DNA of 64,000 bases from NCBI GenBank assembly GCA_949283575.1, contig CASDSU010000028.1, positions 391,706 to 455,705 on the forward strand, read 5' to 3'. The notes under the pieces were generated by a model, which was not told where the DNA came from, searched no databases, and was given only the letters and a program-made list of their open reading frames with translations. The position numbers were made by a program, and so were the translations under genes. The stretch comes from an uncultured Eubacteriales bacterium (GTDB lineage Bacteria; Bacillota; Clostridia; TANB77; UBA1234). This document shows, one piece after another, positions 24,201-54,028 of the stretch (position 1 is the first letter of the stretch; each line of letters opens with the position of its first letter).

Positions 24201-27200
24201 ATACATTCATAGTAAATCAAAACAAGATATACTATATATGGGCTAAAGACGCTGCTGGAAACGTTGGTGGAAGAGCATTTACTGCACAGTGGATATGTCA
24301 AGAAATTTGGGATACAACTGGTCAATCTGGAAAAGATACAAGAGCAGTTCTAGAACTTGATGGAACTTTATTATTTGAAGTTGTAGACGTAGCTACAGGT
24401 AAAGATTATAACTCAACAGGAGTAATTAAAGATTATGCTATTAACACAGCTCCTTGGAGTAATGATAATAGAGTAATAAGAATTGAGGTTTCTGAAGGAA
24501 TAACAGCTATTGGCGAATATGGTTTATCAAATGCTACAAATGTAGCATCAATAAGTATTCCAACATCAGTAACAAGCATCTCAGAATCTGCATTCTACAG
24601 AACAAACAATTATAACAATGTTTCAGTATCTGGTTCAAATACAGAATTTAAGGCAGAAAATTTAGCAATCTATACTGCAAACAAAGATATTTTATATGTA
24701 TATAGCAATATGAATATTGCAGATACGTTTGTGATGGATTCAACAGTTGTAACTATTGGAGCCGGTGCATTCTATGGTAATGATACACTTACAGAAATGA
24801 GAGTATCTCCAAATGTTTTAAATGTTGGACTTGATGCATTTGAAGGAGTTACAGATGATGTTTACTACTATACATCAAGTGAAGGCATGAAAGAATATGT
24901 AGAAGCAAATCCTACAGAAGCAAACTTCATCCCAATAGACAATGTAAAACCAATAATAGAGAAATTTGAAATTAATAATGGAGAAGCAGCATCACCTGAA
25001 GCTGATGTAATTCTTACAATTGACGCAACAGATGATGTAGAAGTAGTTAAATACTTTGCTTCAGCAACTTATTACACACCAGAACAAATTACAAGCGTTG
25101 CTGATTCAGAGTGGATGACATACACAGGTGAAGAATCATATAAATTAGCTGCTCCATATGGAACTAAGACTGTTTATGTATGGGTTAAAGACTCATCTGG
25201 AAACATTTCAGATGTTGTAGAAGATTCAATATATTATGATGCAATAGGATTTGACTTATATGGACAAACAGAAATTGTTCAATACGTTGACACAACCGGA
25301 AAAGATTATTATGAATATGTAGAAAGTATTCAAGGTGGACATAGCGAAGTAGAAAACCACACAGTTCATGTGACTGGATTAGTAAATCATAAAGTTGTTG
25401 GAACATACACAATTACTTATAGCATTATAATAGATAATCAAGAAATGATTGCAAAATACAGAACTGTTGATGTAATCGAAAATTCTTGGACAGGTGCAAC
25501 AGGAACAACAGATGATGGATTCACATTTGTAATTCATACAAATGGTAAATATGCTAAGATTACAGGATTCACAGGAACAACTACTGAAGTATTCGAAATT
25601 CCAGCAAGTGTTGAGCTAAATGGAGTAGAGTATAAGGTAATTGATGTTGGAAATACAGACACAACGAAGAATATCTTAAATATTGTTACTAGTTATTCTG
25701 ATTTAACTTATGACCATACAGTTGAAAAAATTATTTTACCAGATACATTAATAAGAGTTAGTGATAATGCATTTGCAAACTTTGATAAGTTAACTATTTT
25801 AGATATTCCAAATTCAATAATGTCTTTTGGCAGTAGAGCTTTCAAAGATGCTGGTGCAAGTAACAAAATAGATACTTTAAGATTGCCAGATAATTTTAGA
25901 GTGCTAGAAAAATCAGCATTAATGCAAATTAATGTGAATAATATTGATTTTGGTAATACAATAAGATGTTTAGATACATATTCTGTATCTTGGATTACAA
26001 ATAATACAAACCTTGTAATTAATATTCCTGAATCAGTAGAGTATATTTCGGAAGCTACATTTAGAGGTTCATACATTTATGACATAAATGTTGATGAGGA
26101 TAATGTTAGTTATAGGATTTGTGATAGTAATATTGCACTTCTTACAGCAGATGGAACAACATTAATTGCTTATCCAACTACTAGTGATTTTGAAGAATAT
26201 AGGGTTCAAGATAGTGTGAAGGTGATAGGAAATTCAGCGTTCACTTATGCAACTACGATCAAAGCTATAGACCTTGCTAATGTTACTGAGATACATCCTG
26301 AGGCTTTTGAAAACATTCAAACTATGACAACTGTGACAGGAACATCAAATGTTGGAATAATTGGAAGCGAATCTTTTAAAGATACACCAATTACTGAATT
26401 TGAGTTTTCAAAGAACCTATCTACAGTAGGTGATAATGCATTCCAAAACACAGCGCTTAGCGATGTTGTTATTGAAAGCAAAGCTTCAATTGGGGAGTAT
26501 GCATTTGCAGATTGCGAAAACTTAGAAGATATCATGTTCTATACAAACTTAGGTATCGTTACACTTGCTAATGCAAATGCAATCTCAGACGCTGCTACAA
26601 TTTACGTTCCTTTTGGAATGGAAGCTATGTATGAAGGTGATAGTGTTTACAAGACAATTCCTGATTATACAAACAGAATTAAACCAATTCTAAAATTAAT
26701 TGGTGATTCATCAATGGAATGGTTATTAAACGAACCTTATACAGATGAAGGTGTTTACGCACTTGGCGTAGAAACAAACGTTGCAATGACTGAAACTAAG
26801 ATCCCAGGATTTGAGCTTATTGTTGAAGGCGGAGTAAATCCAGGTGAAGCAAAACGTCATACTGTTACATATATTGCAAAATATAATGGCGTAGAAGTTG
26901 ATAGAGTCGAAAGAATAATTGATATTAAAGACTATGAAGCTCCTGTGATTAATGGAGTTGAGACTGATAGCAGCTGGGTTGTAGATTATCAAACATTTAT
27001 AGTAGATGCTACAGATAATATTGCTGTTACTGGTTACTATATTAGTACTTCAAGTGATAAACCTGCACTAGATGCAGAAGGATGGCAAGTATCAAATTCA
27101 GTTAAAGCTATTGATAATGGAACTTGGTACATCTTTGCAAGAGATGGTTTTGGAAACGTTTCTGAACCATATGAAGTAGAAGCTACTTGGGTTTGCTCAG

Positions 27201-30200
27201 GTGTTTGGGATATTAGTAAGAATAGTGATAGAACTGTTTTAGGTATCTTATCTGTAGATGGTACAGAGCTATATATCAAAGGTATTGGTGAAACTAAAGA
27301 TTATGAAAAATCAAGTGCACCATGGTATTTAAGCAACAGAATTGATATCACAAAAATAGAAGTAGACGAAGGCGTAAGATACTTAGGAAGCTATCTATTA
27401 GAAAATATGCCAAGAGTTGAAACAATAGAACTTCCAGCAAGCTTAGAGAGAATAAGTGATACTACATTTGCTTTAACAAATAACTTTGATAGTATAGAGT
27501 TAAATGGAAACACAAGATTTGTATACGAAAACGGAACTTTGTACGGCGATGAGTTTAAAACATTGTATGTTCATACAAATAAATTCACTAACTCATATGC
27601 ATTACCTACAACAGTTACAAAGATTTGTGCAGGAGCATTTGCTAATAACACAACAATCTCAAGTCTAGATTTAAGTAATGTTACATCTATAGGAGATAAA
27701 GCGTTTAGTGGAGTATTACACTTTGGTAATGTTTATGTTTCTAAGAAATTAGAAAACATTGGTGCAAACGTGTTTGAAGGAACATATGGACCAATTTACT
27801 ACTATTCATCTTGTGCAACAATGATGGAATATGTAAAAACTTATGGTACAGAAACTACATTTATTATGATAGATGACGTTTTACCAATAGTTGAAAAAAT
27901 GACAATTAATGATAATGCTGTATCTACAGATGATAGAAATGTAACATTAAACATTAAGATAACAGATGATGTTGCAGTTTCTAAGATTCTTATCTCAGAA
28001 CTTGAACTTACAAACTTGAAAGCTGATGATTCTCGTTGGCAAGACTACAACGGCGAAACAGAACTTGCATACAAATTGTCTGCAGAAAATGGTGAAAAGA
28101 CAATTTATGTATGGGCTATGGACACAAGCAATAATATTAGTATTCCTGGAGTGGATACGATTTTACTTGGCGTTAACGATTTTGCTTTTGAAACTGACGA
28201 TTATGTAGTTCAATATGTTGATAAGACTGGAAAAAATTATTATGAATATAGTGAAGAATTCCAAGGTGGATACACAATAACAACAGAAGGAATAACAGTT
28301 GAAGTTGATACAAATATTGATGTAACAACTGTTGGAGAAAAAGAAGTTGTTTATTCATTATTCCATAATGGGTTGAAAGTTGCAGAATACATAAAAACAG
28401 TTTATGTAATTGAAGATGAGTGGGAAGATACAATTTATACTTTCCGCGATTATGAATATCAAAAACATATTAGTGGAAAATATGCTAAGATTACTAAATA
28501 TTTAGGTAGCGATACATCAGTTGATTTCCCTACAAATATTCGTGATGAGAATAATGAAAGTTATTTGGTAATTGAAATTGAAAGCTTGGATGAAAATCCA
28601 GTTGTTCCAACTTCTACAAGATCAGTTATTTTACCATACTGTTTAATTAGTGTTGGTAAGAATGCATTTGCTAATTGTATTAATTTGAATAATATAGAAT
28701 TTATGTTCAATGTTATGACGATAGAAGAAAATGCATTTAAGAATTCTGGTATACAAAATCTTATAATAGATAACAACACAAGAGAGATTAAACGTGGTGC
28801 ATTTGATGGAACTCCAATTAGTTCAGTTACTTTGGGTGCTTTAACAAAGAGTATTGAAGAAGATGTATTTAGAAATGCAATTACGGCAAATGAAGTAATT
28901 TTACGTAACACTATTGATAATATTGGTGAAGGTGCATTTGCGGGAAGCATAATAAATAACTTTGAAACAAATGCTGTTAGCGAAGATTCTAAATATGTTA
29001 TTTATGATTCAACTTATGTTGTTGAAAGAAATACATCAAACCTTGTAGCAGTGGCCGTTGGTTCTGTTGTAGGCGATGTAGAAATAAAAGAATTTAGCAT
29101 AAATAGAATTGGTAATGGAGCATTTATGAATGCTGATAGCATGACTTCGATTTCAATACCAGAAGGCTATAATGAGATAGGTAAAGAAGCATTTAGAAAT
29201 ACAGCTCTTAGAATTATTGAAGTTCCTGGCGCTGTTAAAGAGATTCCAGAATATGCTTTTGCAGATTGTAACAACTTAAGTTTTGCTGCTTTACACAGTG
29301 TAACTGAAATTTCTGTAAGTGCGTTTGAGAATAACAATGGTTTAAATAGTTTAGTAATTTTAACAGACAAAGATAGTATTTGTACAATTGATAATGCTTC
29401 GTTACTTCCAATAGCTACAAATATTTATGTTGTAGATTCAGCTTCATATAAAGCATCAAGTGATTGGAATGCTGTAGAAGAAAGAATTTTCGACATATTA
29501 AGATTAAATGGTGCTGAAGAAGTTGTTGTAGAAGCTGGTGACGAATATGTTGAAGAAGGTGTATATGTAATAGATGAAGTATTAGTGTCTAATGGCAATC
29601 ATTCAATTCTTGATAGTGTAAGAATGGAGATCATGTCTGACTTTAATACACAAGGTTTAGGAGAGCAAGAAGTTAGATATACATTGTATTCAGAAACTGA
29701 AGCTAGAGCAGAGGTTATAAGAATTATTAAGGTTCAAGATACAACGCCTCCGACAATTGAAGAAGTTCAAACAATTGATGAAGCACAGGCTATGAGAGAG
29801 AGATTTACTGTTATTGCTACTGATAATCATAGAATTGCAGGATATGCAATAACAAAAGATAATAATCCTCCAGAGCTTGACTCAGATATTTGGGTAGATT
29901 CAAATATTTTATATGCAGATTCAAATGGTTTATGGTATATATGGGTAAAAGACGAAGCTGGAAATATTTCAGTTCAAGAAGTTGAAGCTGTGCATATTTG
30001 CCGTGCTGAGTGGGATATCGGTGTTATACCAGGAACAGTATTTGGATTAATCACATTTGATAATGAATTTGTTATCGAGGGTGAAGGTGCAGTTAAATAT
30101 TTTGCAGAGGATGAAATTCCTTGGATTGAATATATGAATGAAATTGTAGCGATTGAAGTAAGAGAAGGAGTTACTCTTCTTAGAGAATATACACTTGGTA

Positions 30201-33200
30201 AATTACCAAATGTAGAAACTATTTCATTACCTTCAAGCTTAGTATCTGTGGAAACTTCAACTTTTGCTATGACAAACAATTATGACAGCATAGTTTTCCC
30301 AAACGGAACATCAATATTCACATATGAAGATAGAACTTTATATTCAGTGGATAAAGATATTTTATACGTTCATTCTAATAAGAATGTAACAACTGATTAT
30401 ACAATTGATAGTGCAGTTGAGGTGATCGCAGAATATGCATTTGCAAATAATCAAAATATCATAACGATTAATGTTACATCAAATCCAACTCTTCTTGAAG
30501 GTGCATTTAGTAATGCTAAGTCCCTTGAGACTATAAATGGACAAATTGGTGGAACAAAGATTTCGGTATATGCTTTTGAAGGATGCAATAAACTTTCTGG
30601 AATTGAATTATCTGAAACTCTTGAGACAATTGGCTCATATGCATTTAGTGATTGTAATATGATATTTGAATTTAATTTCAAAGCTTGTGAAAACTTGACG
30701 ACATTTGAACACCATGCATTTGCAAACTTATACAATATTAAGACTTTAAGAATTCCAAGAATAGTTACAACGATTACTACTGATGATACTGGTACAAGAA
30801 ATGTATTTGAGAACTTAGGAGGTAACTTCAGTGAAAACGCGATAGTATACTATTACGAGAGTTGTAACGTTATGATGGATTACGCAGCAAATTATGCTGA
30901 TGAAAATGTTGACTTCGTTTTAATAGATGAAGTAGGTCCAACAATTATAAATCTTGAAGTTGAAAATATTGATGGAGGAACATATGCAGCAGGAACATAT
31001 TTAGAGATTGTTGCCACATTATCTGAAGAATTCATAACAACAAAAGGAATAATACCTGTGCTTTCAATTGCATTTGGAAATGGTCATGCATCTCAATTAG
31101 AATCGATAGAGATTAATGGTAACAAGATTAAATATGGATATACAATCACACCTGACGATTTAGGCAAGCTTACATGTGTTGCGTTCGAAGGTGAAGTATA
31201 TGACGATCAAGATAATAGAACAATATTTACAGAGGCTACATTTAATGAGAAAGAAGTATTTGCAAGAAGTGGTGTTCTTGTTGAAAGCGACTTTGATGCA
31301 AATAAATATTTCACAACTCTTGCTGTTGCTGCAGATTACATTACAATTAGAGGTAATTTGACATTATTACTTGATGAAGAAGCTGTAGAACCTGCAATAT
31401 TCAAAGAAAATACACTTGTAAATCTTGATATTAATGGTAAAACAATAATGATGAATACAAATGCTTCAAATTCATTGATTATCAATCGTGGTATTATGAA
31501 TATTAAAGATTCTGGTAGTGGATTACTTGGCATTAGTGGTGATAACGGTAATGTTTACGTTATTTCAAATGAAGGTGATTTAACTGTTACTGGTGGTGTC
31601 ATTAGAGCTCAAGGATTTGGAGATGGTATACCATATGGTATATTTAATGCGATAGATGCGAAGACAACTGTAACAGGTGGAAGCATTGAGGCCGTTAACT
31701 TATCAGGTACAGGTTATGCAATCCTAAATGCTGGTAAACTATTTGTTAGAGGTGGAACAATTGCTGCAACAACACTAGAAGGTACAGCTTATGGTATTTA
31801 CAATACTGGTGAAACTGTAATGACTGGAGGAAATATCGCAGTAAGATTAACTTCAGGAAATAGTGGATTAACAACAGGTATTTATATCCAATCTGGTAAA
31901 GTAGTAATGGGTGCAGATGATGGAACAATTAGTATTGAAATACCATCAATTTACAGTGCTAAAGAAGGTATTAGAAATGTAGACGGTTCGTTAGAATTCT
32001 ATGATGGTGTCGTTGAAGGTGCTCTTTATAAATCAGTATTCTCAGACGATGTAAAAGTTGTTGAAGGATATGCTCTTTCAAGAAAACCTGTAGGCGAACG
32101 TGAAAAAGCAATGCTTGATTTTGACGTTATTAAACCATCTATTGAGCTTACAAATCTAACACCTGAATGGAGAAATAGTGAGGTCATTATTGAAGCTAGA
32201 ATTACGGATAATGAATCTGGATTATTTAGTGCTAAGTTTGAAGGAACTGATATAGCTCTAGTGGATGATATGATTGAGATTAAGGTTGATGAAAACGGTA
32301 TTTATAAATTTGTAGCAGTTGACCTTGCAGGAAATGTGGCAGAAGAGAGTATTAAAATTGATAACTTAGATAAGGTTGCACCTACATTTGGTGAAGTTAA
32401 ATATGAATCTATGGCTGGTCAAAAAGAAGTTATTCTTACAGCTGAAGTTAAAGACGACTTGTCTGGTATATATGGATTCGTTCTTTCTAAGAGCAACATT
32501 GAGCCAACAAGATGGGAAAGACTTGATAATATTAAACTAGAAACAGTTCTTGAGATTTCAGTAACTTTAAACGGTGTATATTATCTATATATAATTGACG
32601 ATGCAGGAAATTCTACAAGATATGGCGAAGAGATAGATATTTCAATCGTAGACGCAAGTGCTCCTAAGATTGAGAAAGTTAATATTCAAGATGATGATAG
32701 AGGATTTGCAAATAGCACAGCTGTTATGATTGAAGTAGATGCAAAAGATGATACTGGTTTAGCAGAAATTTTGATAAGCAATACACTTCTTACAAATTCA
32801 CAAGTTAATAGCTCAACAGACTGGGTTCCATACAGTGATACAGTTCTTTGGAACTTACCAACTGGAGATGGTGAGAAGACAGTTTACGTATGGGTTAAAG
32901 ATAGAGTTGGAAGAGTAAGTAGCTATGCATCAGATACAATTAAACTTTTAGCACAATATGTAGGTAATGATGGTGCAAGCAATACATCATTCAAATTATT
33001 AATAAAAGATGCGAATTATGATTTTAATGAGCAATTGACTGATGCTGAAATAGCAATCAGGGTTAAAGATGTCGCAGGAAATGTAGTTGCTGAAACTGGA
33101 TTTGGTCAAGGCATATCATTGAAATCAGCTCCAACTATTTATGGACCAGTTCAAGAAGGAACGGAGGTTATGAACGGTAGATACTACACAATAATCGCTG

Positions 33201-33559
33201 AAAACCTAACTGGAAATGGTACAGTATTCTTGGTAATCAAGACAAATGCTGAAGTAGACAGAGCTGGAAACACAATAAAATCAAATACATTAAATGCTAG
33301 TGAATTCGAAATTGCGACAGACGTTGTAGTTGAACTTGGAAAACCAACAATTTCTGTAACAGATACAGAAATCGTGGTAACAGATGCCGAAGAACACAGA
33401 GTAAATGCACTTAAAGTAGATGGCATGACAATTGAACTTAAAGCTGGAAGAATCACAATGGCAGAATTAAGTAGCAAATATGGAATTACAGTAGAAAGTG
33501 GTACAGTACTTGAGACAATCGACAAATGTGGAAACACAGCAGTGCAAGTAGTACAATAG
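21233..33559 (+). CDS. Giant (4108-aa) BspA-like multidomain surface protein
   Basis: AAGGAGA at 21217-21223, then ATG 21233. Signal/anchor FLMNFMLMLSFIMCLSVGATIIYA|AD. DUF285 26-residue repeats lie around 21990-22230 (NVTGMSSMFAGCRGLTSLNVSKFDTRKVTDMGSMFWNCKELKSI). Two beta-helix-like stretches lie at ~22700-24030 and ~31250-32100. Three diverged tandem super-modules combine Ig-like units with BspA LRR_5 blocks. Stop is TAG 33557-33559. Confidence 0.9.
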   Translation: MNNFKRRTATKHFLMNFMLMLSFIMCLSVGATIIYAADSSEIYDEIYLDTTLPSTTAPAYEVVDGKVVLTSNQTDAESGIGSIEYGYKLEGEEDYTWQDSSDFSGLEYGTYDVVTRATDLAGNVQVSETVSVEIENPTPGMLMKREDSTNVSGTGYVYYAIGAKRASQKLRDSSYLTYTSDSIKTIILLSDNTVPADALASWDASYTYGDGKVMAWVKVNEKDTSVYDLYIGSNNGIIAPADSGYLFADYANCVEIRNLSILDTENVTGMSSMFAGCRGLTSLNVSKFDTRKVTDMGSMFWNCKELKSILLGDNFNKLTGSDMFSDCSKLTTIITTKSITLSRYAMTLGTSTGLSSLSDAILYVPNKESEVLYEKATNYSTVFASDKDADGDIYRIRPILELNGDKTITLLVGSTYTDEGALVAGMNINTLNNQIKGYTLATTGLDDVDTRTAGNTATITYTLKYKDPYDENATAQTIMTAERTVTTIVGYYSDGTNLYDTLADAFEGADNGDTIEVMQDVTDDTYAIVPTGKSIILDLKGNTITMTALMPIENNGMLEIKDSASAGGKLLNIASNNESFINNADNLITLSSLPEENEISEYETHELPTDVSNGSIVQNVSGTLITNKGFVTINENVFLQGYDIAIRNEANSILNMRGGTLTNNVSGTEATLYVEAGAIINIYDGIISSNGAGKAIINNGSITISNRTESEGQPQIINENGVSIINQENIGDTTAKLTITDAIIEGVVINRGVNKLSIANSTLQSENDIFLITTAGTVTIKDSTYTGKGLINTFDENAIVNLTNVTATATETVIANNYGTVNVGGVSVLTSTTGTAIETAGITNIKDEVEIKGVNGIYNIGTLTFGISGDTVNRLIKVNSSTTAINNEGVFNWYDGEITGTTEKTYIGNTPKLDASVSIMIETNVDRETQYVLLDTEAPVISNIITETDWVKNSQTLQVIAEDNTGVIGYAVTEDANTPSVDSGIWSIGNTFIVNQNKIYYIWAKDAAGNVGGRAFTAQWICQEIWDTTGQSGKDTRAVLELDGTLLFEVVDVATGKDYNSTGVIKDYAINTAPWSNDNRVIRIEVSEGITAIGEYGLSNATNVASISIPTSVTSISESAFYRTNNYNNVSVSGSNTEFKAENLAIYTANKDILYVYSNMNIADTFVMDSTVVTIGAGAFYGNDTLTEMRVSPNVLNVGLDAFEGVTDDVYYYTSSEGMKEYVEANPTEANFIPIDNVKPIIEKFEINNGEAASPEADVILTIDATDDVEVVKYFASATYYTPEQITSVADSEWMTYTGEESYKLAAPYGTKTVYVWVKDSSGNISDVVEDSIYYDAIGFDLYGQTEIVQYVDTTGKDYYEYVESIQGGHSEVENHTVHVTGLVNHKVVGTYTITYSIIIDNQEMIAKYRTVDVIENSWTGATGTTDDGFTFVIHTNGKYAKITGFTGTTTEVFEIPASVELNGVEYKVIDVGNTDTTKNILNIVTSYSDLTYDHTVEKIILPDTLIRVSDNAFANFDKLTILDIPNSIMSFGSRAFKDAGASNKIDTLRLPDNFRVLEKSALMQINVNNIDFGNTIRCLDTYSVSWITNNTNLVINIPESVEYISEATFRGSYIYDINVDEDNVSYRICDSNIALLTADGTTLIAYPTTSDFEEYRVQDSVKVIGNSAFTYATTIKAIDLANVTEIHPEAFENIQTMTTVTGTSNVGIIGSESFKDTPITEFEFSKNLSTVGDNAFQNTALSDVVIESKASIGEYAFADCENLEDIMFYTNLGIVTLANANAISDAATIYVPFGMEAMYEGDSVYKTIPDYTNRIKPILKLIGDSSMEWLLNEPYTDEGVYALGVETNVAMTETKIPGFELIVEGGVNPGEAKRHTVTYIAKYNGVEVDRVERIIDIKDYEAPVINGVETDSSWVVDYQTFIVDATDNIAVTGYYISTSSDKPALDAEGWQVSNSVKAIDNGTWYIFARDGFGNVSEPYEVEATWVCSGVWDISKNSDRTVLGILSVDGTELYIKGIGETKDYEKSSAPWYLSNRIDITKIEVDEGVRYLGSYLLENMPRVETIELPASLERISDTTFALTNNFDSIELNGNTRFVYENGTLYGDEFKTLYVHTNKFTNSYALPTTVTKICAGAFANNTTISSLDLSNVTSIGDKAFSGVLHFGNVYVSKKLENIGANVFEGTYGPIYYYSSCATMMEYVKTYGTETTFIMIDDVLPIVEKMTINDNAVSTDDRNVTLNIKITDDVAVSKILISELELTNLKADDSRWQDYNGETELAYKLSAENGEKTIYVWAMDTSNNISIPGVDTILLGVNDFAFETDDYVVQYVDKTGKNYYEYSEEFQGGYTITTEGITVEVDTNIDVTTVGEKEVVYSLFHNGLKVAEYIKTVYVIEDEWEDTIYTFRDYEYQKHISGKYAKITKYLGSDTSVDFPTNIRDENNESYLVIEIESLDENPVVPTSTRSVILPYCLISVGKNAFANCINLNNIEFMFNVMTIEENAFKNSGIQNLIIDNNTREIKRGAFDGTPISSVTLGALTKSIEEDVFRNAITANEVILRNTIDNIGEGAFAGSIINNFETNAVSEDSKYVIYDSTYVVERNTSNLVAVAVGSVVGDVEIKEFSINRIGNGAFMNADSMTSISIPEGYNEIGKEAFRNTALRIIEVPGAVKEIPEYAFADCNNLSFAALHSVTEISVSAFENNNGLNSLVILTDKDSICTIDNASLLPIATNIYVVDSASYKASSDWNAVEERIFDILRLNGAEEVVVEAGDEYVEEGVYVIDEVLVSNGNHSILDSVRMEIMSDFNTQGLGEQEVRYTLYSETEARAEVIRIIKVQDTTPPTIEEVQTIDEAQAMRERFTVIATDNHRIAGYAITKDNNPPELDSDIWVDSNILYADSNGLWYIWVKDEAGNISVQEVEAVHICRAEWDIGVIPGTVFGLITFDNEFVIEGEGAVKYFAEDEIPWIEYMNEIVAIEVREGVTLLREYTLGKLPNVETISLPSSLVSVETSTFAMTNNYDSIVFPNGTSIFTYEDRTLYSVDKDILYVHSNKNVTTDYTIDSAVEVIAEYAFANNQNIITINVTSNPTLLEGAFSNAKSLETINGQIGGTKISVYAFEGCNKLSGIELSETLETIGSYAFSDCNMIFEFNFKACENLTTFEHHAFANLYNIKTLRIPRIVTTITTDDTGTRNVFENLGGNFSENAIVYYYESCNVMMDYAANYADENVDFVLIDEVGPTIINLEVENIDGGTYAAGTYLEIVATLSEEFITTKGIIPVLSIAFGNGHASQLESIEINGNKIKYGYTITPDDLGKLTCVAFEGEVYDDQDNRTIFTEATFNEKEVFARSGVLVESDFDANKYFTTLAVAADYITIRGNLTLLLDEEAVEPAIFKENTLVNLDINGKTIMMNTNASNSLIINRGIMNIKDSGSGLLGISGDNGNVYVISNEGDLTVTGGVIRAQGFGDGIPYGIFNAIDAKTTVTGGSIEAVNLSGTGYAILNAGKLFVRGGTIAATTLEGTAYGIYNTGETVMTGGNIAVRLTSGNSGLTTGIYIQSGKVVMGADDGTISIEIPSIYSAKEGIRNVDGSLEFYDGVVEGALYKSVFSDDVKVVEGYALSRKPVGEREKAMLDFDVIKPSIELTNLTPEWRNSEVIIEARITDNESGLFSAKFEGTDIALVDDMIEIKVDENGIYKFVAVDLAGNVAEESIKIDNLDKVAPTFGEVKYESMAGQKEVILTAEVKDDLSGIYGFVLSKSNIEPTRWERLDNIKLETVLEISVTLNGVYYLYIIDDAGNSTRYGEEIDISIVDASAPKIEKVNIQDDDRGFANSTAVMIEVDAKDDTGLAEILISNTLLTNSQVNSSTDWVPYSDTVLWNLPTGDGEKTVYVWVKDRVGRVSSYASDTIKLLAQYVGNDGASNTSFKLLIKDANYDFNEQLTDAEIAIRVKDVAGNVVAETGFGQGISLKSAPTIYGPVQEGTEVMNGRYYTIIAENLTGNGTVFLVIKTNAEVDRAGNTIKSNTLNASEFEIATDVVVELGKPTISVTDTEIVVTDAEEHRVNALKVDGMTIELKAGRITMAELSSKYGITVESGTVLETIDKCGNTAVQVVQ

Positions 33560-33619: not shown

Positions 33620-33862
33620 TTATGAATTCTTAATTTCATCTAAACATTTTTTGCAAACATTCTTATCTTTATAAGTTGTAACATCTTCAGACTCTCCGCA
33701 GAAAATGCATGTAGGTTCGTACTTTTTCAAAACGATTGTAGAATTATCAACATAAATTTCGATTGAGTCCTTAATGTCGATTCCTAAAGTTCTTCTTAAT
33801 TCGATTGGTAGAACGATTCTGCCTAGTTCATCTACTTTTCTAACTATGCCAGTTGATTTCAT
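33620..33862 (-). CDS. abrB: Transition-state regulator AbrB
   Basis: MKSTGIVRKVDELGRIVLPIELRRTLGI..IEIYVD..IVLKKY is nearly identical to the B. subtilis AbrB N-domain. AGGAGG RBS. Confidence 0.93.
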   Translation of the reverse strand: MKSTGIVRKVDELGRIVLPIELRRTLGIDIKDSIEIYVDNSTIVLKKYEPTCIFCGESEDVTTYKDKNVCKKCLDEIKNS

Positions 33863-33944: not shown

Positions 33945-34242
33945 GGAAAATAAGTGAAATAATGGAAAGATATGTAAAACGCGTTATGTAAAATGCGTTA
34001 ATGAAGCGGGTTTAAAGGTGATTAAATATTCTTAAAAATTTCGACAAGTGTATCAAAATTGAAGAAAATAAGTAAAAAAACATGCAAAAACGTAAAAATT
34101 ATGTCTACGGTTTGAATTGTAAATGTAGACAATGAGTAACGTTTTCTACGTGAGTTGAAATAGAAAAACGAATTAGAATAAGAAATAAAAACGAGCATAA
34201 GATGTAAATATAATAATTATTTCAGCAGAATTGGAGGTAAAA

Positions 34243-35372: not shown

Positions 35373-35957
35373 TTAGAGCATTTGCAGCTCGTTGTCGATG
35401 ATGGGGAGTGCAAAGTGAATGAAAACGCTGGGAATGGCAATCACTTCGAAAATTACGATAGAAAGCCAGTACCAGAGCGGATCTCCGAAGAGACCGTCAT
35501 TCAGGATAATGCACATTGCGTAAAGGAAGAACGAACGCGCGAGAAAGCCAACAAGAATGCCAGAAAAGAGGAGCAATGCGAAAACCACTTTCCGATTAAG
35601 AAATTTTTCGCTGGAAGGCTCATCAGTAGAGGCGCTTATGATGGTTGCGCATTTCTGAAGTAAGTTATCGCCCACGAGCCAAGGCCAAACTTGGACGAGC
35701 TCGAAAAAATCCACGGCAATATTGAGGCCGAGAAGGACGATCATGGCGATGACAAAAACGACAGAAAACCACAGAGCAAAAGTGACGACGGGTTCATTAC
35801 CGCTCAGCATGCACGCAATCCATGCAATAAACAGTAGCGCCAGAGAGAGCATATACCACTTGAATCTCGGGTATGATGCATTCACGTCTTTTGCTACGCC
35901 TGTGACGTAGTTCTTGACTTTGGACAGAAGCTGAGACTTGGCGTTGTTGGAATTCAT
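35373..35957 (-). CDS. Membrane protein, unknown function (GC-rich gene)
   Basis: AAAGGAGA 7 nt before ATG 35957. 4-5 TM helices. Spot G+C is 42-47% against 17-30% nearby. Several spurious antisense ORFs overlap it. Confidence 0.7.
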   Translation of the reverse strand: MNSNNAKSQLLSKVKNYVTGVAKDVNASYPRFKWYMLSLALLFIAWIACMLSGNEPVVTFALWFSVVFVIAMIVLLGLNIAVDFFELVQVWPWLVGDNLLQKCATIISASTDEPSSEKFLNRKVVFALLLFSGILVGFLARSFFLYAMCIILNDGLFGDPLWYWLSIVIFEVIAIPSVFIHFALPIIDNELQML

Positions 35958-36073
35958 GCAGAAATCTCCTTTCATGTGTCAGCACTAGTCTTTCCATAAA
36001 GGAATTTCTAGACAGTGCAAGTTCATAACGACTCTAACATTATACCACACTTTACATAATATTGCAAATTTAT

Positions 36074-36100
36074 GGACAAGTGGGACGGAGATTTCTGTCC
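36074..36100 (-). repeat. GGACAA hairpin repeat copy (inverted core)
   Basis: ATGGACAAGTGGGACGGAGATTTCTGTCCAT. Confidence 0.7.
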
Positions 36101-36189
36101 ATTTGTCGAGATATGTCGATTTGTTTTTATTGACTTTTTAAAAAGATGGTTTTAATATTTGAAACAAGAAATAAACAAACTACAGGGAA

Positions 36190-37038
36190 GTGAAAATTTT
36201 GATTGACACGATAAATGTGCTCTTGTTTGTTTTGATTTTTATGTTGTCATATTTTTTAATCAATAAATATAACATTTTTCTGAAAACGGATAAATATAAA
36301 AAGAAAAACAATTTATATTTTTCTACCAAAGAACATCCTATTAAAGTTTTTTTTCAAAAGATCAATTTTATAAAGGCAAAAGACAATTTTTTATCTAAAC
36401 AAGGTTATCCATTAAATTTAAATGCAATTTCATATTTTTTATTGAAATTTTCTTTAACGTTTCTGTTATTTTTCGCAGGTTCAATTAACTATAATTCGAT
36501 TTTGATTGGCTTAGTGCTTGGAACGCTAGGATATTTTTGCGTGGACATATATATTTATTTGAACAAAAAAACACGCGATAATGAAATTTGTACAGATCTT
36601 TTAAATGTAGTAGATTCAATATCTTTGCAACTTTCGGCAGAAATGAATTTAAAAGATTCATTGAGACGACAATTTGAAAATTGTAAAAATAAAGATTTCA
36701 AAAAAGCAATTCTAGAATTTTCAACGCAATATGAACTCTCGGAGTTAGATATTAATAATTCATTGAATGAATTGAAAAACAAATTTGATATTTTAGAAGT
36801 TAATATGTTTTGTAATTCATTAAAAGAATATTCAAAGGTTGGAAATATAACAGAAATTCTCGAAAACCTATCGGATACGCTAAAAACAAAGTATTTAGAA
36901 AAAATAAAAAGTGATACACGCACAAAAGTTTTATACATAACTTTTGGAGTAATCCTTGCACTTGGAAATATCATAATGCTGACTTTTTATCCGCTGTTTA
37001 TCTCAATTGGACAGGGCTTCAATTCAATATTTAGTTAA
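36190..37038 (+). CDS. TadB/TadC-like (T2SS-F family) pilus platform membrane protein
   Basis: 282 aa. An N-terminal TM segment, a central pair of TM helices, a helical cytoplasmic domain (..LLNVVDSISLQLSAEMNLKDSL..LNELKNKFD..) and a C-terminal TM segment, matching the single T2SSF-domain Tad layout. GTG start, weak RBS. Confidence 0.6.
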   Translation: MKILIDTINVLLFVLIFMLSYFLINKYNIFLKTDKYKKKNNLYFSTKEHPIKVFFQKINFIKAKDNFLSKQGYPLNLNAISYFLLKFSLTFLLFFAGSINYNSILIGLVLGTLGYFCVDIYIYLNKKTRDNEICTDLLNVVDSISLQLSAEMNLKDSLRRQFENCKNKDFKKAILEFSTQYELSELDINNSLNELKNKFDILEVNMFCNSLKEYSKVGNITEILENLSDTLKTKYLEKIKSDTRTKVLYITFGVILALGNIIMLTFYPLFISIGQGFNSIFS

Positions 37039-37083
37039 AATTTAATGGTGGATTAGAAATATAAAAATAAAAGGAGAATTAAA

Positions 37084-37275
37084 ATGAAACAACAAAAAGT
37101 AAATTTAAAATCACAAAGAGGATCGGAGATATTGCAGGTAATACTAATTGCAGGTGTTTTGCTTGTTATTGTAATAACAGTTTTTTATCCTCAAATGCAA
37201 ACGTTATTTGGAGATGTTATGGGAACAATATCAACATGGTTTAAGAACACAGGGAGTGCACCATTTACGGTTTAA
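37084..37275 (+). CDS. Flp-type (class III signal) pilin candidate, 63 aa
   Basis: AGGAGA RBS. A basic leader ending ..SQRG, then SEILQVILIAGVLLVIVITVF and a short tail. Confidence 0.6.
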   Translation: MKQQKVNLKSQRGSEILQVILIAGVLLVIVITVFYPQMQTLFGDVMGTISTWFKNTGSAPFTV

Positions 37276-37320
37276 TGGGAGCTTGAGCAAAATTTAGAGA
37301 AAGCAGAAAGAAGTGAAAAA

Positions 37321-38031
37321 ATGAAAAATAAAGTTGGAATTTTAAGTATCACGCTAATCTTAACGATAATTGTATTTTCAATATCTACGTATATGCAAAA
37401 ACAACTTATAGATTATGAACCAAAGATAAGTTGTTTAGTAGTAAATCAAGATATTGAAGCTAATCAAAAATTAGAAGAGGAAATGTTTGTTTCAAAAGAA
37501 ATACCCGTTTCATTAATTTCAACAGTACAAGTTATATCAGGCTTTTCGGAGATTGAAGGTTTGTATGCGAAAGATGATATTTATAAAAGTCAAATCGCGA
37601 TGAAGAAGCAGTTTGATACTAAAGAAAATTTATCGATATATGAAGCGGAAAATGGAAAAGAAAAAATATCCATAAAAATTCAAAATGCAGAAAATGGTGT
37701 GTCGTATGCGATAAAACCAAACTCATTCGTAAATATTTATTCAACGGTTAGAAATGATTATGCAAAAAATTTTTTAATGGATAATGAGCGCCTATCAATT
37801 GGTGATGAGTATGATGGATACACAGTAATAAAATTAATTGATTCTGTTAGAGTGCTAGGTGCATTTAACATTGATGGAATTGAGGTTAATGGATACGAGG
37901 ATGGAATCATTGATTCAATTATGATTGCGGTTACGCCAGATGAAGCAAAACAAATAAACTTACTTAGAGATATTGCATCGTTTAATATTACCGGAATATC
38001 AAATCAATATGTAGAGGATGAAGAAGTATGA
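37321..38031 (+). CDS. cpaB: CpaB/RcpC-like Flp pilus assembly protein
   Basis: N-terminal TM segment, a SAF-like stretch (VVNQDIEANQKLEEEMF..KEIP), then GKEKISIKI...IKPNSFVNIYSTV and ..IMIAVTPDEAKQINLL.., the CpaB pattern. Confidence 0.65.
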   Translation: MKNKVGILSITLILTIIVFSISTYMQKQLIDYEPKISCLVVNQDIEANQKLEEEMFVSKEIPVSLISTVQVISGFSEIEGLYAKDDIYKSQIAMKKQFDTKENLSIYEAENGKEKISIKIQNAENGVSYAIKPNSFVNIYSTVRNDYAKNFLMDNERLSIGDEYDGYTVIKLIDSVRVLGAFNIDGIEVNGYEDGIIDSIMIAVTPDEAKQINLLRDIASFNITGISNQYVEDEEV

Positions 38032-38351
38032 AAATATATTTTATAGATAAAACAGGAAAAAACGGAAGAATTGCAAAAGAACTACAAACTAGAGGCTATG
38101 AAAATGTAGAGATAAAGAATACATATTCATTTAAATGTACAAAAAGTGATTACGTTATTTTAAGTGAATACAACAAACATGATAAAGATAATGAAATGCT
38201 ATGTAAATACAACAATTTGATAATCATTTCGAAAGATATCGATAAAGATACCATATATGATTATATAAGAAAATATAAGGTTATAGATATAATAACTGAA
38301 AAAGCAACAGATGAATATATCGCAGAGAGAATTACAAAATCATTTGTATAA
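38028..38351 (+). CDS. Small soluble protein; possible receiver-like/TadZ N-domain remnant
   Basis: ATGA overlap with the cpaB-like gene and a GAGGA RBS. Alternating beta/alpha pattern (MKIYFIDK..YVILSEY..LIIISKD). No ATPase domain. Confidence 0.5.
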   Translation: MKIYFIDKTGKNGRIAKELQTRGYENVEIKNTYSFKCTKSDYVILSEYNKHDKDNEMLCKYNNLIIISKDIDKDTIYDYIRKYKVIDIITEKATDEYIAERITKSFV

Positions 38352-38359
38352 GAATTTTT

Positions 38360-38384
38360 GGACAAGAGAAACGTCACTGTGTCC
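38360..38384 (+). repeat. GGACAA hairpin repeat copy
   Basis: TTTTTGGACAAGAGAAACGTCACTGTGTCCAAAAA, 8 nt after the stop at 38351 and 18 nt before ATG 38403. Confidence 0.8.
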
Positions 38385-38402
38385 AAAAAAAGGAGAATAG
38401 TT

Positions 38403-39698
38403 ATGAAAAGAAATTTGGATAGAATAAAAATAATTACGATTTTTATTTTCTTTGTTAGTTTTTTAATTTCTAACAATAAAGGTGTACATGCTGAAAATTT
38501 GATAAATTTTTCAGATATTCAGAATCATTGGGCGAAAGAAAATATAACAGAGTTAGTTAATAGAAATGTTGTTGCAGGTTATGAAGATGGAACATTCAAA
38601 CCTGAGAATAATGTTACGGTTGCTGAATTTGTAAAGATGATAGTAGAGGCTGGAGGATACAGTTTGACAAGAAGTGGAGATTCGGTTTGGCCTGATTTTT
38701 ATATTGAAACAGCAATTAATAAAAAAATGATTTTTCATGATGAATTTGAGATTTATGATAAACCAATAACGAGATATGAAATTTCAAATATAGTTTCAAG
38801 ATTTATAGATACAAGTGATCTGAAAGAAAGTAAAAATGTTTTTAAGGATTTGGATGAAGAATATAGAAGTCAAGTTTTAAAGTTAGTGAAATTAAAGATT
38901 ATAAATGGTTATGAGGATAAAACGTATCGTGGGAAAAATAATGTGACACGTGCGGAGGCTGCAACAATAATATGTAAAACGCTAAATGCCAGAGATGATC
39001 TGGTTTCAAAACGCAAGTATAATGTGAAAGAAAGAACAGATTTAACAAATTATAAGGTTGAGAATGATACAAATAAAACTTCGATAAAGACGTATTATGA
39101 AATAAAAGGAAATGATTTATTAATATATGATCATGGAAGATATGCAAAATTAAGTGGATATGAAATAAATGATAAAAATATCGATTTGAAAAAAGTAATA
39201 AAAATAATTAAAGCATTAGTTAGTGAAAATAGATATGTAGCAGTTGTGTATACGCCTTCAAAATATACAACAAATCAATTAAGAATTCTATATGGAAAAA
39301 ACGAAACAAATACTTTAAGCAATGAATATGATTTTTCATTTACATATTATGAGGATAAATTATATGAATTATCGAAAATTTCAGGTGTTGAAGAATTTAG
39401 TGATGAATGTTATTTAAAAATTGATGTTTTGAAAATGTGGGATGAATTTTATAATTATCAAAACGGAATATATATTGATGAATATAAGAAAGAGAAGTTG
39501 CTAGAAGCGCTAGAAATAGAATTTGGTGGATATAGCAATTTAATATGCGAATATATTTTAGAGAAAAATGTTAAATATGTTACTAATGTTGAACGTGACA
39601 AGAAGCATGTTGAGAAAAAGAGGTTTGGAAATTATATAATTAATTTTTATCAAAACGAAAATAATGTTCCACAGTTTTATGTGGCTAAACAAAAATAG
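38403..39698 (+). CDS. SLH-domain cell-wall-anchored protein
   Basis: AAGGAGA RBS before ATG 38403. The track TTG at 38358 lies in the repeat. Signal peptide, then SLH repeats (FSDIQNHWAKENITELVNRNVVAGYEDGTFKPENNVTVAEF; FKDLDEEYRSQVLKLVKLKIINGYEDKTYRGKNNVTRAEA), then an unknown C-domain. Confidence 0.8.
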   Translation: MKRNLDRIKIITIFIFFVSFLISNNKGVHAENLINFSDIQNHWAKENITELVNRNVVAGYEDGTFKPENNVTVAEFVKMIVEAGGYSLTRSGDSVWPDFYIETAINKKMIFHDEFEIYDKPITRYEISNIVSRFIDTSDLKESKNVFKDLDEEYRSQVLKLVKLKIINGYEDKTYRGKNNVTRAEAATIICKTLNARDDLVSKRKYNVKERTDLTNYKVENDTNKTSIKTYYEIKGNDLLIYDHGRYAKLSGYEINDKNIDLKKVIKIIKALVSENRYVAVVYTPSKYTTNQLRILYGKNETNTLSNEYDFSFTYYEDKLYELSKISGVEEFSDECYLKIDVLKMWDEFYNYQNGIYIDEYKKEKLLEALEIEFGGYSNLICEYILEKNVKYVTNVERDKKHVEKKRFGNYIINFYQNENNVPQFYVAKQK

Positions 39699-39738
39699 TT
39701 TAAGTCAGATTAAAAGGAATCAGAGAAAGGAAAAGAGA

Positions 39739-41394
39739 TTGAAAAGATTTTTATTATTAATGACATTTTGTTTTATGATACTTATACCTAATTGTTATGC
39801 ATATAGTAGTGGCTTCTTATACATGATTAAAGCAATGAATATTGAATTAAATAATGTTAATGGATTACCATTAAACGAAGAGATTTATGAAAAATATAAT
39901 TTGATTGTATATGGAAGCCCTATTACAGTAAATGATACGAAACAAAGGTGGAAAACTACAGAAAACGGGAATTGGACCAAAAGTGCAGGTGCATGGAATG
40001 GTGCTGGTGAAAGAGGAGAGTATTGGATTCTGGGTCAAGATTTTTCTGGCAAATCAGTTCATAATGAAATTTTTCCGGATGATTATAATTCTGGAACATC
40101 GCCACTTAATTGGAATTATAGGGTAATAAATGGTGCCGTGGAATCATGGAGCGATGCTTCAAAATATATGTATGAAGAGCAAAAAGAATATATGCTTACA
40201 CAAAAATTATCAAGATTTGGAACGACATATGACTTAACGGTTTTAGATATAGGATTGGATAAGGCACGTCTTGAAAACTATGCTACATGGGGAAGTACAG
40301 GTAGTGTATATACAGAAAAGCCTGGAGAAGGAAATGTATATTGGGTTGCAACGTTTAGTATTCCGCCAATGGCTGGTGAAGCAAAATTAAATAGTGTTTT
40401 AGAATTGCCTAATGGAACCGAATATACTATGTCAAAGGATGACGAAAAAATTGAAATTCCACTTTCTTTTGGAGCGTATATTGATGGTCTTTCAGAATAT
40501 GCGAAAGCAGAGCATATAAAAGTAATTGAATCAGAACTTAAAGTTAATGGAGTAACATACAATACGGTGAGTGCATCAGAAACGATTAGAATAAGCAAAA
40601 ATGGAAATTTAATTATAAAGAAAGAAGATTATCCTGGCGTTGAAAAAATCACCTTGAATTTTGAATGTAATTCGTTTGCGGCTACGTATTTTCCGTCAGA
40701 TCCGGTGTTATATTCGAATAAAAATGTAACGGTAACAATCAATCTAGAATCGGATTCTAAAAACAAGGTTTTGTATTATAACGACGAAAATGCTCCAACA
40801 ATATATAGAATAACAATTAAACGTTTAAGCGTCGATGCTAGAGGGAATACCATTGAGGAAGATTTATGCATAAATAATAAAACAAGAATACCTTTTGTAT
40901 GTGCGGGACAAGTTATAAAAATTGAAGTGGAAACGTCAAAAAGTGCAGATAAAGTAACGTTTGATTTTGCAGGTTTTAATTCCATTCGAAAGCTGGACAG
41001 TTTGACTAAAAGATTTTTATGGGATGAACCAAAAAGTAGAGGAGAAAAGACTATATATTCAAATTTGACAGCACTTCAAAGAATGTACAATATGCCGGCT
41101 AGATTAACTTTGGAGGAACAAAAAGCAGAAACAGAAGTATATTCAGCAATTTATGTAGTCCCATATCAAACGACACAGACACTTCATTCATGGAATTCGC
41201 TTCGAGAAGAAAAGAAAGATGCATTTAAAATAGATGAGTCTAAACTGTTTAGTAGAAAAGAAAACTCATACACTTTGGTAGTACGAGCAAGTTCAGAAGT
41301 TGGTAGTCGTACGAAAAACTATAAATTTGATGTTGCTGAAAGATGGGATGAACTATATAATCACGATATTTCAAAGTATATATCAAATTATTAA
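39739..41394 (+). CDS. Secreted hypothetical protein (~551 aa)
   Basis: In-frame TTG 39739 gives a Sec-type signal (KRFLLLMTFCFMILIPNCYA|YSS). AAAGG ~8 nt upstream. No recognisable family. The start is uncertain. Confidence 0.6.
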   Translation: MKRFLLLMTFCFMILIPNCYAYSSGFLYMIKAMNIELNNVNGLPLNEEIYEKYNLIVYGSPITVNDTKQRWKTTENGNWTKSAGAWNGAGERGEYWILGQDFSGKSVHNEIFPDDYNSGTSPLNWNYRVINGAVESWSDASKYMYEEQKEYMLTQKLSRFGTTYDLTVLDIGLDKARLENYATWGSTGSVYTEKPGEGNVYWVATFSIPPMAGEAKLNSVLELPNGTEYTMSKDDEKIEIPLSFGAYIDGLSEYAKAEHIKVIESELKVNGVTYNTVSASETIRISKNGNLIIKKEDYPGVEKITLNFECNSFAATYFPSDPVLYSNKNVTVTINLESDSKNKVLYYNDENAPTIYRITIKRLSVDARGNTIEEDLCINNKTRIPFVCAGQVIKIEVETSKSADKVTFDFAGFNSIRKLDSLTKRFLWDEPKSRGEKTIYSNLTALQRMYNMPARLTLEEQKAETEVYSAIYVVPYQTTQTLHSWNSLREEKKDAFKIDESKLFSRKENSYTLVVRASSEVGSRTKNYKFDVAERWDELYNHDISKYISNY

Positions 41395-41424
41395 AATCAA
41401 AGAAGTTATAGGTGAGAACAAGCG

Positions 41425-41928
41425 ATGAAAGTGAAGAATCAAAATGGTGATGTACTAACAATAGCTTTAATATTTGTAGCAATAGCTCTAGTTATATTTA
41501 CATTTATAATTGCAGTTTTTATGAGTCATATAAATAATATTTTATATAATTTAAAACTTGATATGTATTCAATGAATAGAAGCGCGATAATCGCTGTAAA
41601 TAAATACAGTACGAGTATGGATAAATTCTCATATAATGTTGGGGCATACAAAGATGAATTTATAAAATTTTTGAAAAGTAATTATGAGTTAGATGAAAAT
41701 TTATCAAATGATAAAAAATTAATAACTTCCGTAGAAATAGAAGAATACACAATATACGAAAAAGGAAATAGAGATTTATATACAAATAAAATGTGTGATA
41801 CAAGAACAATACACACTGTGTTAAGTGTTAAAATAAGACCAATTATTTTGAAAAATTATTTGGAAGATATTTTTGTTTTCACAGTTCATGAAGATGTTGC
41901 ATTAAGTTCGATGAAAACAGAAAGATAG
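41425..41928 (+). CDS. TadE/pseudopilin-like protein
   Basis: AGGTGAG RBS. A short leader ending ..NQNG, then DVLTIALIFVAIALVIFTFIIAVF, the same G|x-x-(I/V)-L pattern as the 37084 and 41937 products. Confidence 0.55.
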   Translation: MKVKNQNGDVLTIALIFVAIALVIFTFIIAVFMSHINNILYNLKLDMYSMNRSAIIAVNKYSTSMDKFSYNVGAYKDEFIKFLKSNYELDENLSNDKKLITSVEIEEYTIYEKGNRDLYTNKMCDTRTIHTVLSVKIRPIILKNYLEDIFVFTVHEDVALSSMKTER

Positions 41929-41936
41929 GAAGATAA

Positions 41937-42350
41937 ATGAAAAAAATTGTTAGAAAAAAGGATAATTCATGTAAAGGTAGTGCAATACTTACTACCCCAA
42001 TAATTATAGCAATTGGAATAATGTTTGTTTCAACATTAATAGTACTTGCAGTAAATATATTGATGCCATACATTTGGTATGAAAAGTTATCAAGTTCTTG
42101 CATTAAATATATTTTCGTTATGGAGGAATATGGATATCTTACCAAAAATGAAGTTAGAAATTTAGAAAATGAATTGATAGCACAAGGTTTTAATAGTGAT
42201 AAATTAAAAATAAGTTACACAGCAAGTCGTGTAACTTATGGAAATCCAATATTTTTGAAAGTTGCATATGATTATGAATTAAAAATTCCATTTATAGAAA
42301 AAGAAAATATACCAATGGTTATAGAAAGAAATTCAGTAAGTAAAAGGTAG
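41937..42350 (+). CDS. TadE/pseudopilin-like protein (DUF4320-like)
   Basis: AGGAAG RBS. A leader ending ..SCKG, then SAILTTPIIIAIGIMFVSTLIVLAV. Confidence 0.55.
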   Translation: MKKIVRKKDNSCKGSAILTTPIIIAIGIMFVSTLIVLAVNILMPYIWYEKLSSSCIKYIFVMEEYGYLTKNEVRNLENELIAQGFNSDKLKISYTASRVTYGNPIFLKVAYDYELKIPFIEKENIPMVIERNSVSKR

Positions 42351-42401: not shown

Positions 42402-42422
42402 AGCGCTACCAGTGGTAGCGCT
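42402..42422. terminator. Perfect palindrome overlapping the rlmH stop codon; shared convergent terminator
   Basis: AGCGCTACC-AGT-GGTAGCGCT. T-rich sequence follows on both strands. It encodes ..ERYHW* of RlmH. Confidence 0.6.
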
Positions 42423-53792: not shown

Positions 53793-54028
53793 TGATTCTT
53801 CCTCCTTAATGATGTTTGTCAATTCGTAGGGACACAAGGAAAACACCGTGACTAGATTGACCACTGCTAGATTTAGCTAACGTAGTAAATTATACCATGA
53901 TATGGTAATTGAATCAACATAATGCGGAGCTAGAGCGAGAAAACAAGAGTAAAATTGAATAAGGTTTGAGAGAAATATGAAAAAAATCGAACTTATTAAG
54001 ACAAAATTGAGTAAATATGATTCAAAAA

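Follow-up and report, generated by a model that had tools for sequence, protein, structure and literature searches.

The question raised by the locus described here is how a pilus-like module might operate when no assembly motor is encoded beside it. The locus lies in a 64-kb stretch of contig CASDSU010000028.1 (hereafter the window, meaning the whole stretch of DNA that was analyzed), a low-GC (about 0.32) sequence from a metagenome-assembled genome (MAG, ENA ERZ17292903) of an uncultured member of Clostridia. Eight tightly packed genes at 36199-42350 on its plus strand form one operon that resembles part of a Tad/Flp pilus locus. The module descends from, and works like, the Tad/Flp system of monoderm bacteria, of which it is an undescribed variant. 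In its specific form, this reading holds that the operon is functional and represents the non-motor half of a Tad/Flp (type IVc) machine of monoderm spore-forming gut Clostridia, into which a surface cassette has been inserted and whose remaining parts are provided in trans; we regard the chances of this specific form as about even.

The eight open reading frames (ORFs) proposed in the initial annotation were recovered on the plus strand with minor corrections of start codons. They encode, in order, a T2SSF/TadC-like platform protein, a Flp-like pilin, a CpaB-like protein, a small protein with a CheY fold, a protein with SLH domains, a secreted protein of 551 amino acids (aa) and two pilin-like proteins. 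Because the gaps between the genes are short (8-51 nucleotides (nt), with a single pair overlapping by 4 nt) and there is one promoter and one terminator, the set is a single operon. The bidirectional terminator-like hairpin that closes it (42402-42422) is common to the convergent rlmH gene. The platform gene most likely begins at TTG 36199 (279 aa), which is aligned with the ATG of relatives, and probably not at GTG 36190; the TTG-start protein is the version on record, and an exact look-up of the GTG-start version returned no match. The starts of the SLH gene and of the 551-aa gene are ATG 38403 (431 aa) and ATG 39739, respectively.

The Tad-family identities suggested in the initial annotation were borne out for the platform, pilin and CpaB-like proteins and, weakly, for one of the two supposed TadE-like proteins, whose match is to DUF4320; neither of these two matched the TadE family (PF07811), and the 167-aa one is without any family. 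The first gene (36199-37038) encodes a TadB/TadC-like inner-membrane platform protein with one T2SSF domain and about four transmembrane (TM) helices in a TM scan. It matches T2SSF (PF00482) with 23 bits, and 12 of 13 family members also match this profile (best E 1.3e-7). A total of 279 homologues were found; identity is 57% or more for each of the 120 listed, nearly all of which are about 276 aa long, and some orthologues carry the JGI name TadB. A tblastn search of plasmids with the platform protein gave no match. The second gene (37084-37275) encodes a 63-aa major pilin precursor with the leader ...SQRG/SEILQ, which matches Flp1_like with 19.8 bits (below the cut-off). All four further orthologues match this family too; the protein fits a short Flp pilin in size and leader, and every orthologue has the invariant Gly and a hydrophobic helix. 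The 236-aa CpaB/RcpC-like protein (37321-38031) has an N-terminal membrane anchor and matches SAF (25.8 bits, above the cut-off), RcpC and TIGR03177 (pilus_cpaB, E 1.7e-8), with RcpC being matched by 19 of 22 orthologues. At the end of the operon, the 167-aa protein (41425-41928, leader ...NQNG/DVL, one TM helix) is pilin-like solely by its leader, and the 137-aa protein (41937-42350, leader ...SCKG/SAILTTP) is assigned to the DUF4320 type by alignment and by weak matches (E 1e-3; two of three further orthologues match). These last two proteins are unrelated to each other outside the leader.

The common leader of three products, already pointed out in the initial annotation, is real. In the pilin and in the 167-aa and 137-aa proteins, a short basic leader with Gly as its last residue precedes a hydrophobic helix, and across about 25 species this Gly is nearly invariant: no Flp-like or 167-aa orthologue lacks it, and among the 137-aa orthologues a single one, from a distant lineage, has Ala instead. 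Family support is weak for any single protein yet coherent over the set, and five of the eight products show Tad-family profile matches that are reproduced in orthologues. Profile searches against PDB sequences with the platform, CpaB-like, 107-aa, 137-aa and 167-aa families gave nothing significant, and a literature search on DUF4320 and Flp1_like found nothing.

The fourth gene (38028-38351) overlaps the cpaB-like gene by 4 nt and encodes a cytoplasmic 107-aa protein that had been called a receiver-like stub, a description with which its predicted structure agrees. An AlphaFold model built from the single sequence has a (beta-alpha)5 fold (predicted local distance difference test (pLDDT) 77.6, predicted template modelling (pTM) score 0.71), and all top Foldseek matches are CheY-like receivers with TM scores of 0.6-0.67, including 4myr, the N-domain of CpaE2. 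No family was found for it by sequence, nor any detectable sequence similarity to the TadZ/CpaE receiver, and neither a conserved phospho-acceptor Asp (in its alignment) nor a ParA-like domain is present. It is also the only variably present gene of the module, being missing from some sublineages according to tblastn across loci. Judging from the model, the most fitting reading of the protein is an atypical TadZ/CpaE-type receiver domain that occurs by itself and has no ParA-like ATPase domain attached, although the fold by itself cannot prove descent from TadZ/CpaE. An atypical receiver domain is attributed to the TadZ of E. rectale (Xu et al. 2012, as cited in PMC6668835). Like that domain and 4myr, the 107-aa protein combines a CheY-like fold with the lack of a conserved phospho-acceptor and is encoded right after a cpaB-like gene; unlike TadZ/CpaE, it stands alone without a ParA/MinD-type ATPase domain, shows no sequence similarity and is dispensable in several sublineages.

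The fifth and sixth genes form a surface cassette. The 431-aa product of the fifth (38403-39698) is a Sec-secreted wall-binding protein with SLH domains (PF00395, 87.6 bits, with two scoring stretches); its C-terminal domain, about 200 aa long, is conserved, and a signal peptide is visible in all orthologues. The 551-aa protein (39739-41394) is Sec-secreted as well and consists of an N-terminal Athe_2463 domain (NF047340, 91.3 bits against a cut-off of 36, residues 45-207), immunoglobulin (Ig)-like beta-sandwich domains and a conserved C-terminal domain. It belongs to no Pfam family, and its own family has only 122 close members. Its AlphaFold model (pLDDT 90) shows an alpha/beta domain and beta-sandwiches lined up in an elongated array, for which Foldseek returned nothing beyond generic tandem-Ig/cadherin-like matches. 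Exhaustive profile searches revealed that Sec-secreted surface proteins 700-2700 aa in length share its N-terminal ~350 residues at their own N-terminus and that other large proteins share its C-terminal ~200 residues at their C-terminus. A homology search with an alignment of the distant Athe_2463-type N-domains gave no matches.

The contexts of distant Athe_2463 proteins come from three metagenome loci. In L037/L038, from a bioreactor metagenome, a 380-aa protein with a Cu_amine_oxidN1 N-domain is encoded directly 5' of an 810-aa Athe_2463-type protein, and its C-terminus is homologous to the SLH protein's C-terminal domain (hhalign 97.3%, E 1.9e-11; hmmsearch about 1e-18). The neighbors of this pair, the one Athe_2463-type pair with readable neighbors, are nadABC and agrB and include no Tad genes. 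Because the pair recurs there without pilus genes alongside, in contrast to the module, a wall-associated protein with a conserved C-terminal domain followed by an Athe_2463-domain protein is an independent two-gene unit in its own right, which is here embedded in a Tad-derived operon. The embedding of an SLH protein in a Tad module, as initially described, therefore stands, whereas the proposed coupling of the fiber to the wall through it is possible but has to be revised, since the SLH/551-aa pair also occurs without Tad genes. A parallel is known from Caldicellulosiruptor bescii, in which Athe_2463 and Athe_2464 are co-operonic, abundant extracellular proteins whose function is not known (PMC5865380): there, too, a Sec-secreted Athe_2463-domain protein is accompanied by a second protein as its partner.

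The absence of an ATPase, a TadZ ATPase domain and a prepilin peptidase, noted at the outset for the module, extends to the whole window. No scanned ORF of the 64 kb matched Pfam T2SSE (PF00437), a TadZ-type ATPase or Peptidase_A24. Six-frame translations of the window and of related loci L001-L033 contained no T2SSE signature or Walker A motif, and no ATPase families were found among the called genes of L034-L036 and L040-L041. The A24 motif GxGD[VIA]K was absent from the window and from L001-L039, apart from one chance match in a giant surface protein of L015. The sole MinD-like gene of the window is a true minD adjoining minE, and a second T2SSF-type gene was found neither in the window nor in the flanks of related loci. 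A 249-aa ORF with five TM helices (2410-3159, minus strand) was considered as a divergent prepilin peptidase and rejected, as it has no A24 match, no catalytic motif and no family. The module thus falls short of a complete Tad system in four respects that define one: the locus has no ATPase, no second platform gene, no TadZ and no peptidase.

This incomplete gene set is widely conserved. A scan of one genome per GTDB species found the module in 25 species, all of them represented by MAGs of uncultured Clostridia/Eubacteriales from ruminant, rabbit and human guts, and tblastn recovered the full module in every locus with enough DNA (the 107-aa gene excepted). Around three platform homologues (70, 66 and 60% identity), the same module occurs in the same order and without an ATPase in the context, with an AbrB-like gene, spmA and spmB upstream and rlmH, an MBL-fold gene, murA, mgtC and spoIIR downstream. 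The distant lineages L034, L035, L036 and L040 carry the same motor-less module. Distant homologues of the 551-aa protein (29-34% identity) still reside inside it, in three contexts besides that of the window, which makes four genomic contexts in all. The SLH and 551-aa genes are hence conserved inside homologous clusters, a point that the initial annotation had suggested checking. All eight genes are under purifying selection, the ratios of nonsynonymous to synonymous substitution rates (dN/dS) against the nearest relative being 0.03-0.14 (0.05 for the pilin). In the distant locus L035 (3850-6818), the module adjoins a response-regulator/HD-domain gene and a GGDEF gene, which hints at cyclic di-GMP control there in place of the tandem Spo0A boxes described below.

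The promoter region offers a clue to when the operon may be used. The upstream regions of relatives have diverged except for three elements, i.e., a -35 hexamer, a -10 hexamer and a block with the consensus TTTGTCGAAATATGTCGAA. The hexamers constitute a sigma-A-type promoter (TTGACT-17-TAATAT, 36130-36158, plus strand), whose positions are conserved in nearly all relatives. The block contains two TGTCGAA boxes as a direct repeat with a 3-bp spacer (relatives' consensus TGTCGAA-N3-TGTCGAA), and the copy of the window, TGTCGAG-ATA-TGTCGAT (36104-36120, plus strand), ends 9 nt upstream of the -35 hexamer. A 0A-box motif (TGNCGAA) is present at the operon promoter. Spo0A dimers bind TGTCGAA boxes that are paired and spaced in this way, and tandem 0A boxes occur at the Spo0A-controlled promoters of abrB, spoIIG and spoIIE in Bacillus subtilis. 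The putative element of the operon resembles these promoters in the repeats, the spacer and the adjoining sigma-A promoter, and its location upstream of the -35 hexamer is an activation-type position. When 505 kb from 27 non-redundant related loci were searched on both strands with at most one mismatch, all 12 matches to the tandem boxes were located just upstream of the platform gene; some species have three phased boxes, and one has a perfect copy. Direct control by Spo0A, probably activation, is suggested by these sequence features and fits the nearby sporulation genes. We are not aware of any pilus operon that Spo0A targets directly.

The tandem-box pattern has three matches in the window versus 0.44 expected. 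A second match (TGTCGAATTTTGTATAA, two mismatches) lies at 16991-17007 on the plus strand just downstream of minC and may be due to chance. Separately, an 80-aa AbrB/SpoVT-type protein with a C-terminal Cys4 motif is encoded at 33620-33862 on the minus strand, next to spmA/spmB in nearly all relatives. Its gene has a near-consensus promoter (33944-33916, TTGACA-17-TATATT with TG) and, about 95 nt upstream, a perfect single TGTCGAA box (34040-34046, minus strand).

Comparison with known systems helps to define what the module shares with complete pilus loci. In Bifidobacterium breve, the gene order is tadZ-tadA-tadB-tadC-flp-tadE-tadF with tadV elsewhere, and Tad clusters occur in many Clostridia. 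As in such monoderm Tad/Flp loci, the module has a T2SSF platform, a short Flp-type pilin, a CpaB-like protein and pilin-like minor subunits with class-III leaders, lacks a secretin and may have an unlinked peptidase. It differs from them by the absence of TadA/CpaF and of a TadZ ATPase domain, by its one platform gene, by the platform-pilin-CpaB order, by a pilin without G/xxxxEY and by the SLH/Athe_2463 cassette inside. A literature search found no description of this motor-less Tad/SLH arrangement. In the related uncultured gut order TANB77, the Tad cluster is complete and includes TadA as well as a TadC-TadB fusion (PMC11680825), which implies that suitable motors exist in this kind of organism. 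That cluster resembles the module in its conservation across an uncultured gut Clostridia lineage, its CpaB-like gene and its several small one-TM pilin-like proteins; unlike the module, it is complete (CpaB of 358 aa, TadZ, CpaE, TadA of 640 aa, fused TadC-TadB of 693 aa) and has no SLH gene among its 12 annotated proteins, SLH not being mentioned (PMC11680825). Prepilin peptidases are documented as common to several systems or unlinked, and MSH pili lacking a prepilin peptidase offer a precedent for an essential component, presumably the peptidase also here, being supplied in trans; however, MSH-type systems always have the ATPase in the locus, whereas in the module the ATPase itself is missing (PMC6668835). 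Most likely, the motor and peptidase of the module are supplied from another locus.

If the operon is indeed the non-motor half of a Tad/Flp machine, it would probably be switched on from the sigma-A promoter beneath the tandem Spo0A-type boxes at the transition to stationary phase or the onset of sporulation. The Flp-like pilin and the two pilin-like proteins would be inserted into the membrane and cut after the conserved Gly by a class-III (prepilin) peptidase encoded elsewhere, and all three would then be polymerized on the TadC-like platform, driven by a TadA/CpaF-type (T2SSE-family) ATPase and probably with a second platform subunit, all likewise encoded elsewhere. The membrane-anchored CpaB-like protein may act as a sleeve reaching into the wall, and the small receiver-fold protein may serve in the cytoplasm as an adaptor that corresponds to the TadZ/CpaE N-domain. 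The SLH protein would sit on a wall polymer, with its C-terminal domain holding the 551-aa Athe_2463/Ig-like protein beside or on the fiber as an adhesin or exit complex; a physical link between the fiber and the SLH complex and an adhesive role are possible.

Several observations weigh against this model. The pilin lacks the canonical Flp G/xxxxEY motif, the residues after the Gly being SEILQ with Glu at +2 and Gln at +5, and most profile matches remain below curated cut-offs. The boxes are absent from three distant lineages, and one distant lineage keeps a single box. Moreover, neither an ATPase nor a second platform gene nor a peptidase was found within 10 kb of the module in any of more than 30 genomes or in the 64-kb window, and for type IV filament systems it is unusual that the platform lacks an adjacent ATPase in every lineage and in each of four genomic contexts.

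The last of these points could mean that the module has become independent of any motor. It might have been exapted as a static membrane-to-wall scaffold or a short stub that places or exports the SLH/Athe_2463 complex without a dedicated secretion ATPase, a possibility that we consider improbable. The lack of a motor beside the module in every lineage and context, its movement between contexts as a self-contained unit, the embedded and co-conserved surface cassette and the non-canonical pilin motif all agree with it. However, we know of no type IV filament that assembles without a T2SSE-family ATPase, and the strictly kept cleavage-site Gly and the full-length platform fit normal processing and polymerization of a pilin. 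The T2SSE-family ATPase is counted among the "key components" of type IV filaments (PMC6668835).

The regulatory boxes lead to a different alternative, namely that the module forms an accessory filament of stationary phase or sporulation powered by a non-Tad ATPase, such as SpoIIIAA or a type IVa/Com ATPase, together with a PilD/ComC peptidase. The Spo0A-type boxes at the promoter, the conserved sporulation genes nearby (spmA/B, spoIIR and the AbrB/SpoVT-like gene) and the fact that spore-formers always have SpoIIIAA are compatible with this proposal. It is nevertheless doubtful: platform proteins and cognate ATPases normally go together, the operon has a promoter of the sigma-A type and not of the compartment-specific sigma E/F/G/K type, the boxes are missing from distant lineages and the proposal has no direct evidence. 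It is also conceivable, at a similarly low probability, that the module belongs to a new class of envelope machine derived from type IV filaments, a self-contained and horizontally mobile unit of seven or eight genes for one platform, an Flp pilin, two minor pilins, CpaB and the wall-anchored SLH/Athe_2463 complex, which would have no cognate Tad ATPase (either none at all or a non-Tad one such as SpoIIIAA) and would be controlled by Spo0A at the onset of sporulation.

The initial annotation had also considered a decaying locus, i.e., a Tad remnant that lost its motor by deletion. Such a history could account for the simultaneous absence of the motor, the TadZ ATPase domain, the second platform gene and the peptidase, and two MAGs, L031 and L032, have an interrupted platform gene. 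It is, however, very unlikely and in effect refuted, because about 30 species and several deep lineages have intact ORFs in an unchanged order, none of the more than 30 homologous clusters has tadA/tadZ upstream (the opposite of what the initial annotation had named as the sign of a simple deletion), every gene shows the low dN/dS given above, and the promoter and regulatory boxes are conserved. As for the two interrupted platform genes (10001-10814 in both L031 and L032), both MAGs are co-assembled and the 167-aa gene of L031 (14677-15154) is interrupted as well, suggesting that assembly frameshifts are likelier than pseudogenes. Finally, the view that the cluster has nothing to do with pili and is an unrelated envelope gene cluster with chance profile matches is scarcely credible: most matches lie under gathering thresholds and the searches of PDB sequences were without significant match, but five adjacent genes independently match five different families of one system, their orthologues repeat these matches, three products have class-III-type leaders and orthologues carry the TadB annotation of JGI.

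The region immediately upstream of the module had been viewed as a foreign-looking GC-rich gene occupying the position of the motor genes. This gene (35373-35957, minus strand, GC about 0.46), which lies outside the module and encodes a 194-aa membrane protein with four TM helices and no family match, occurs in the window and its closest relative L009 (58% identity) but in no other locus. It is a young, lineage-specific insertion located between spmB and the promoter of the operon; no motor genes were replaced by it. The "GGACAA repeat" at 36064-36100 is an inverted repeat (ATGGACA-N17-TGTCCAT) that is not conserved in the nearest relative and is located just upstream of the promoter (36039-36068) of the inserted gene. 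A second GC-rich island (52191-53864, minus strand, about 0.45 versus 0.32 for the window) encodes a 557-aa membrane protein without a Pfam family; a relationship between the GC-rich genes of the two islands was rejected, as they have no sequence similarity.

Elsewhere in the window, two giant surface proteins with DUF285 and BspA-type LRR_5 repeats are encoded on the plus strand, one of 4111 aa (21224-33559) and one of more than 3050 aa (54684-64000, continuing past the window end), and several relatives also have a giant paralogue upstream of the AbrB-like gene. The cell-shape/division cluster is split (4652-7440 and 10979-16947), with minD-minE-rodA placed upstream of radC-mreB-mreC-mreD-pbp2-minC and not after minC, which is followed by an IS110 transposase fragment (18891-19226) and a DUF285 gene; this suggests a rearrangement. 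In addition, a CofE-like F420_ligase gene appears as two ORFs (3416-4036 and 4081-4401) and the rodA ORF (6685-7440) spans only profile positions 129-354, possibly because of frameshifts or assembly errors.

The presence of an ATPase, a platform and a pilin together defines type IV filament systems and serves to detect them, and a unit without a linked ATPase is invisible to standard detection models. The maintenance of a platform-pilin-CpaB unit by purifying selection in dozens of gut species raises the question of whether the motor acts in trans or is dispensable; if it is true that the unit works without a cognate motor, this would be far more novel than a borrowed one. The module also provides the first genomic context for two orphan families, namely the Athe_2463 domain and the domain at the C-terminus of its partner, and suggests that they form wall-anchored surface complexes that can couple to a pilus. 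Furthermore, judging from the promoter architecture, Spo0A may control a pilus-like structure on the surface of uncultured host-associated spore-formers, which bears on their colonization and on the surface molecules that they show to the host.

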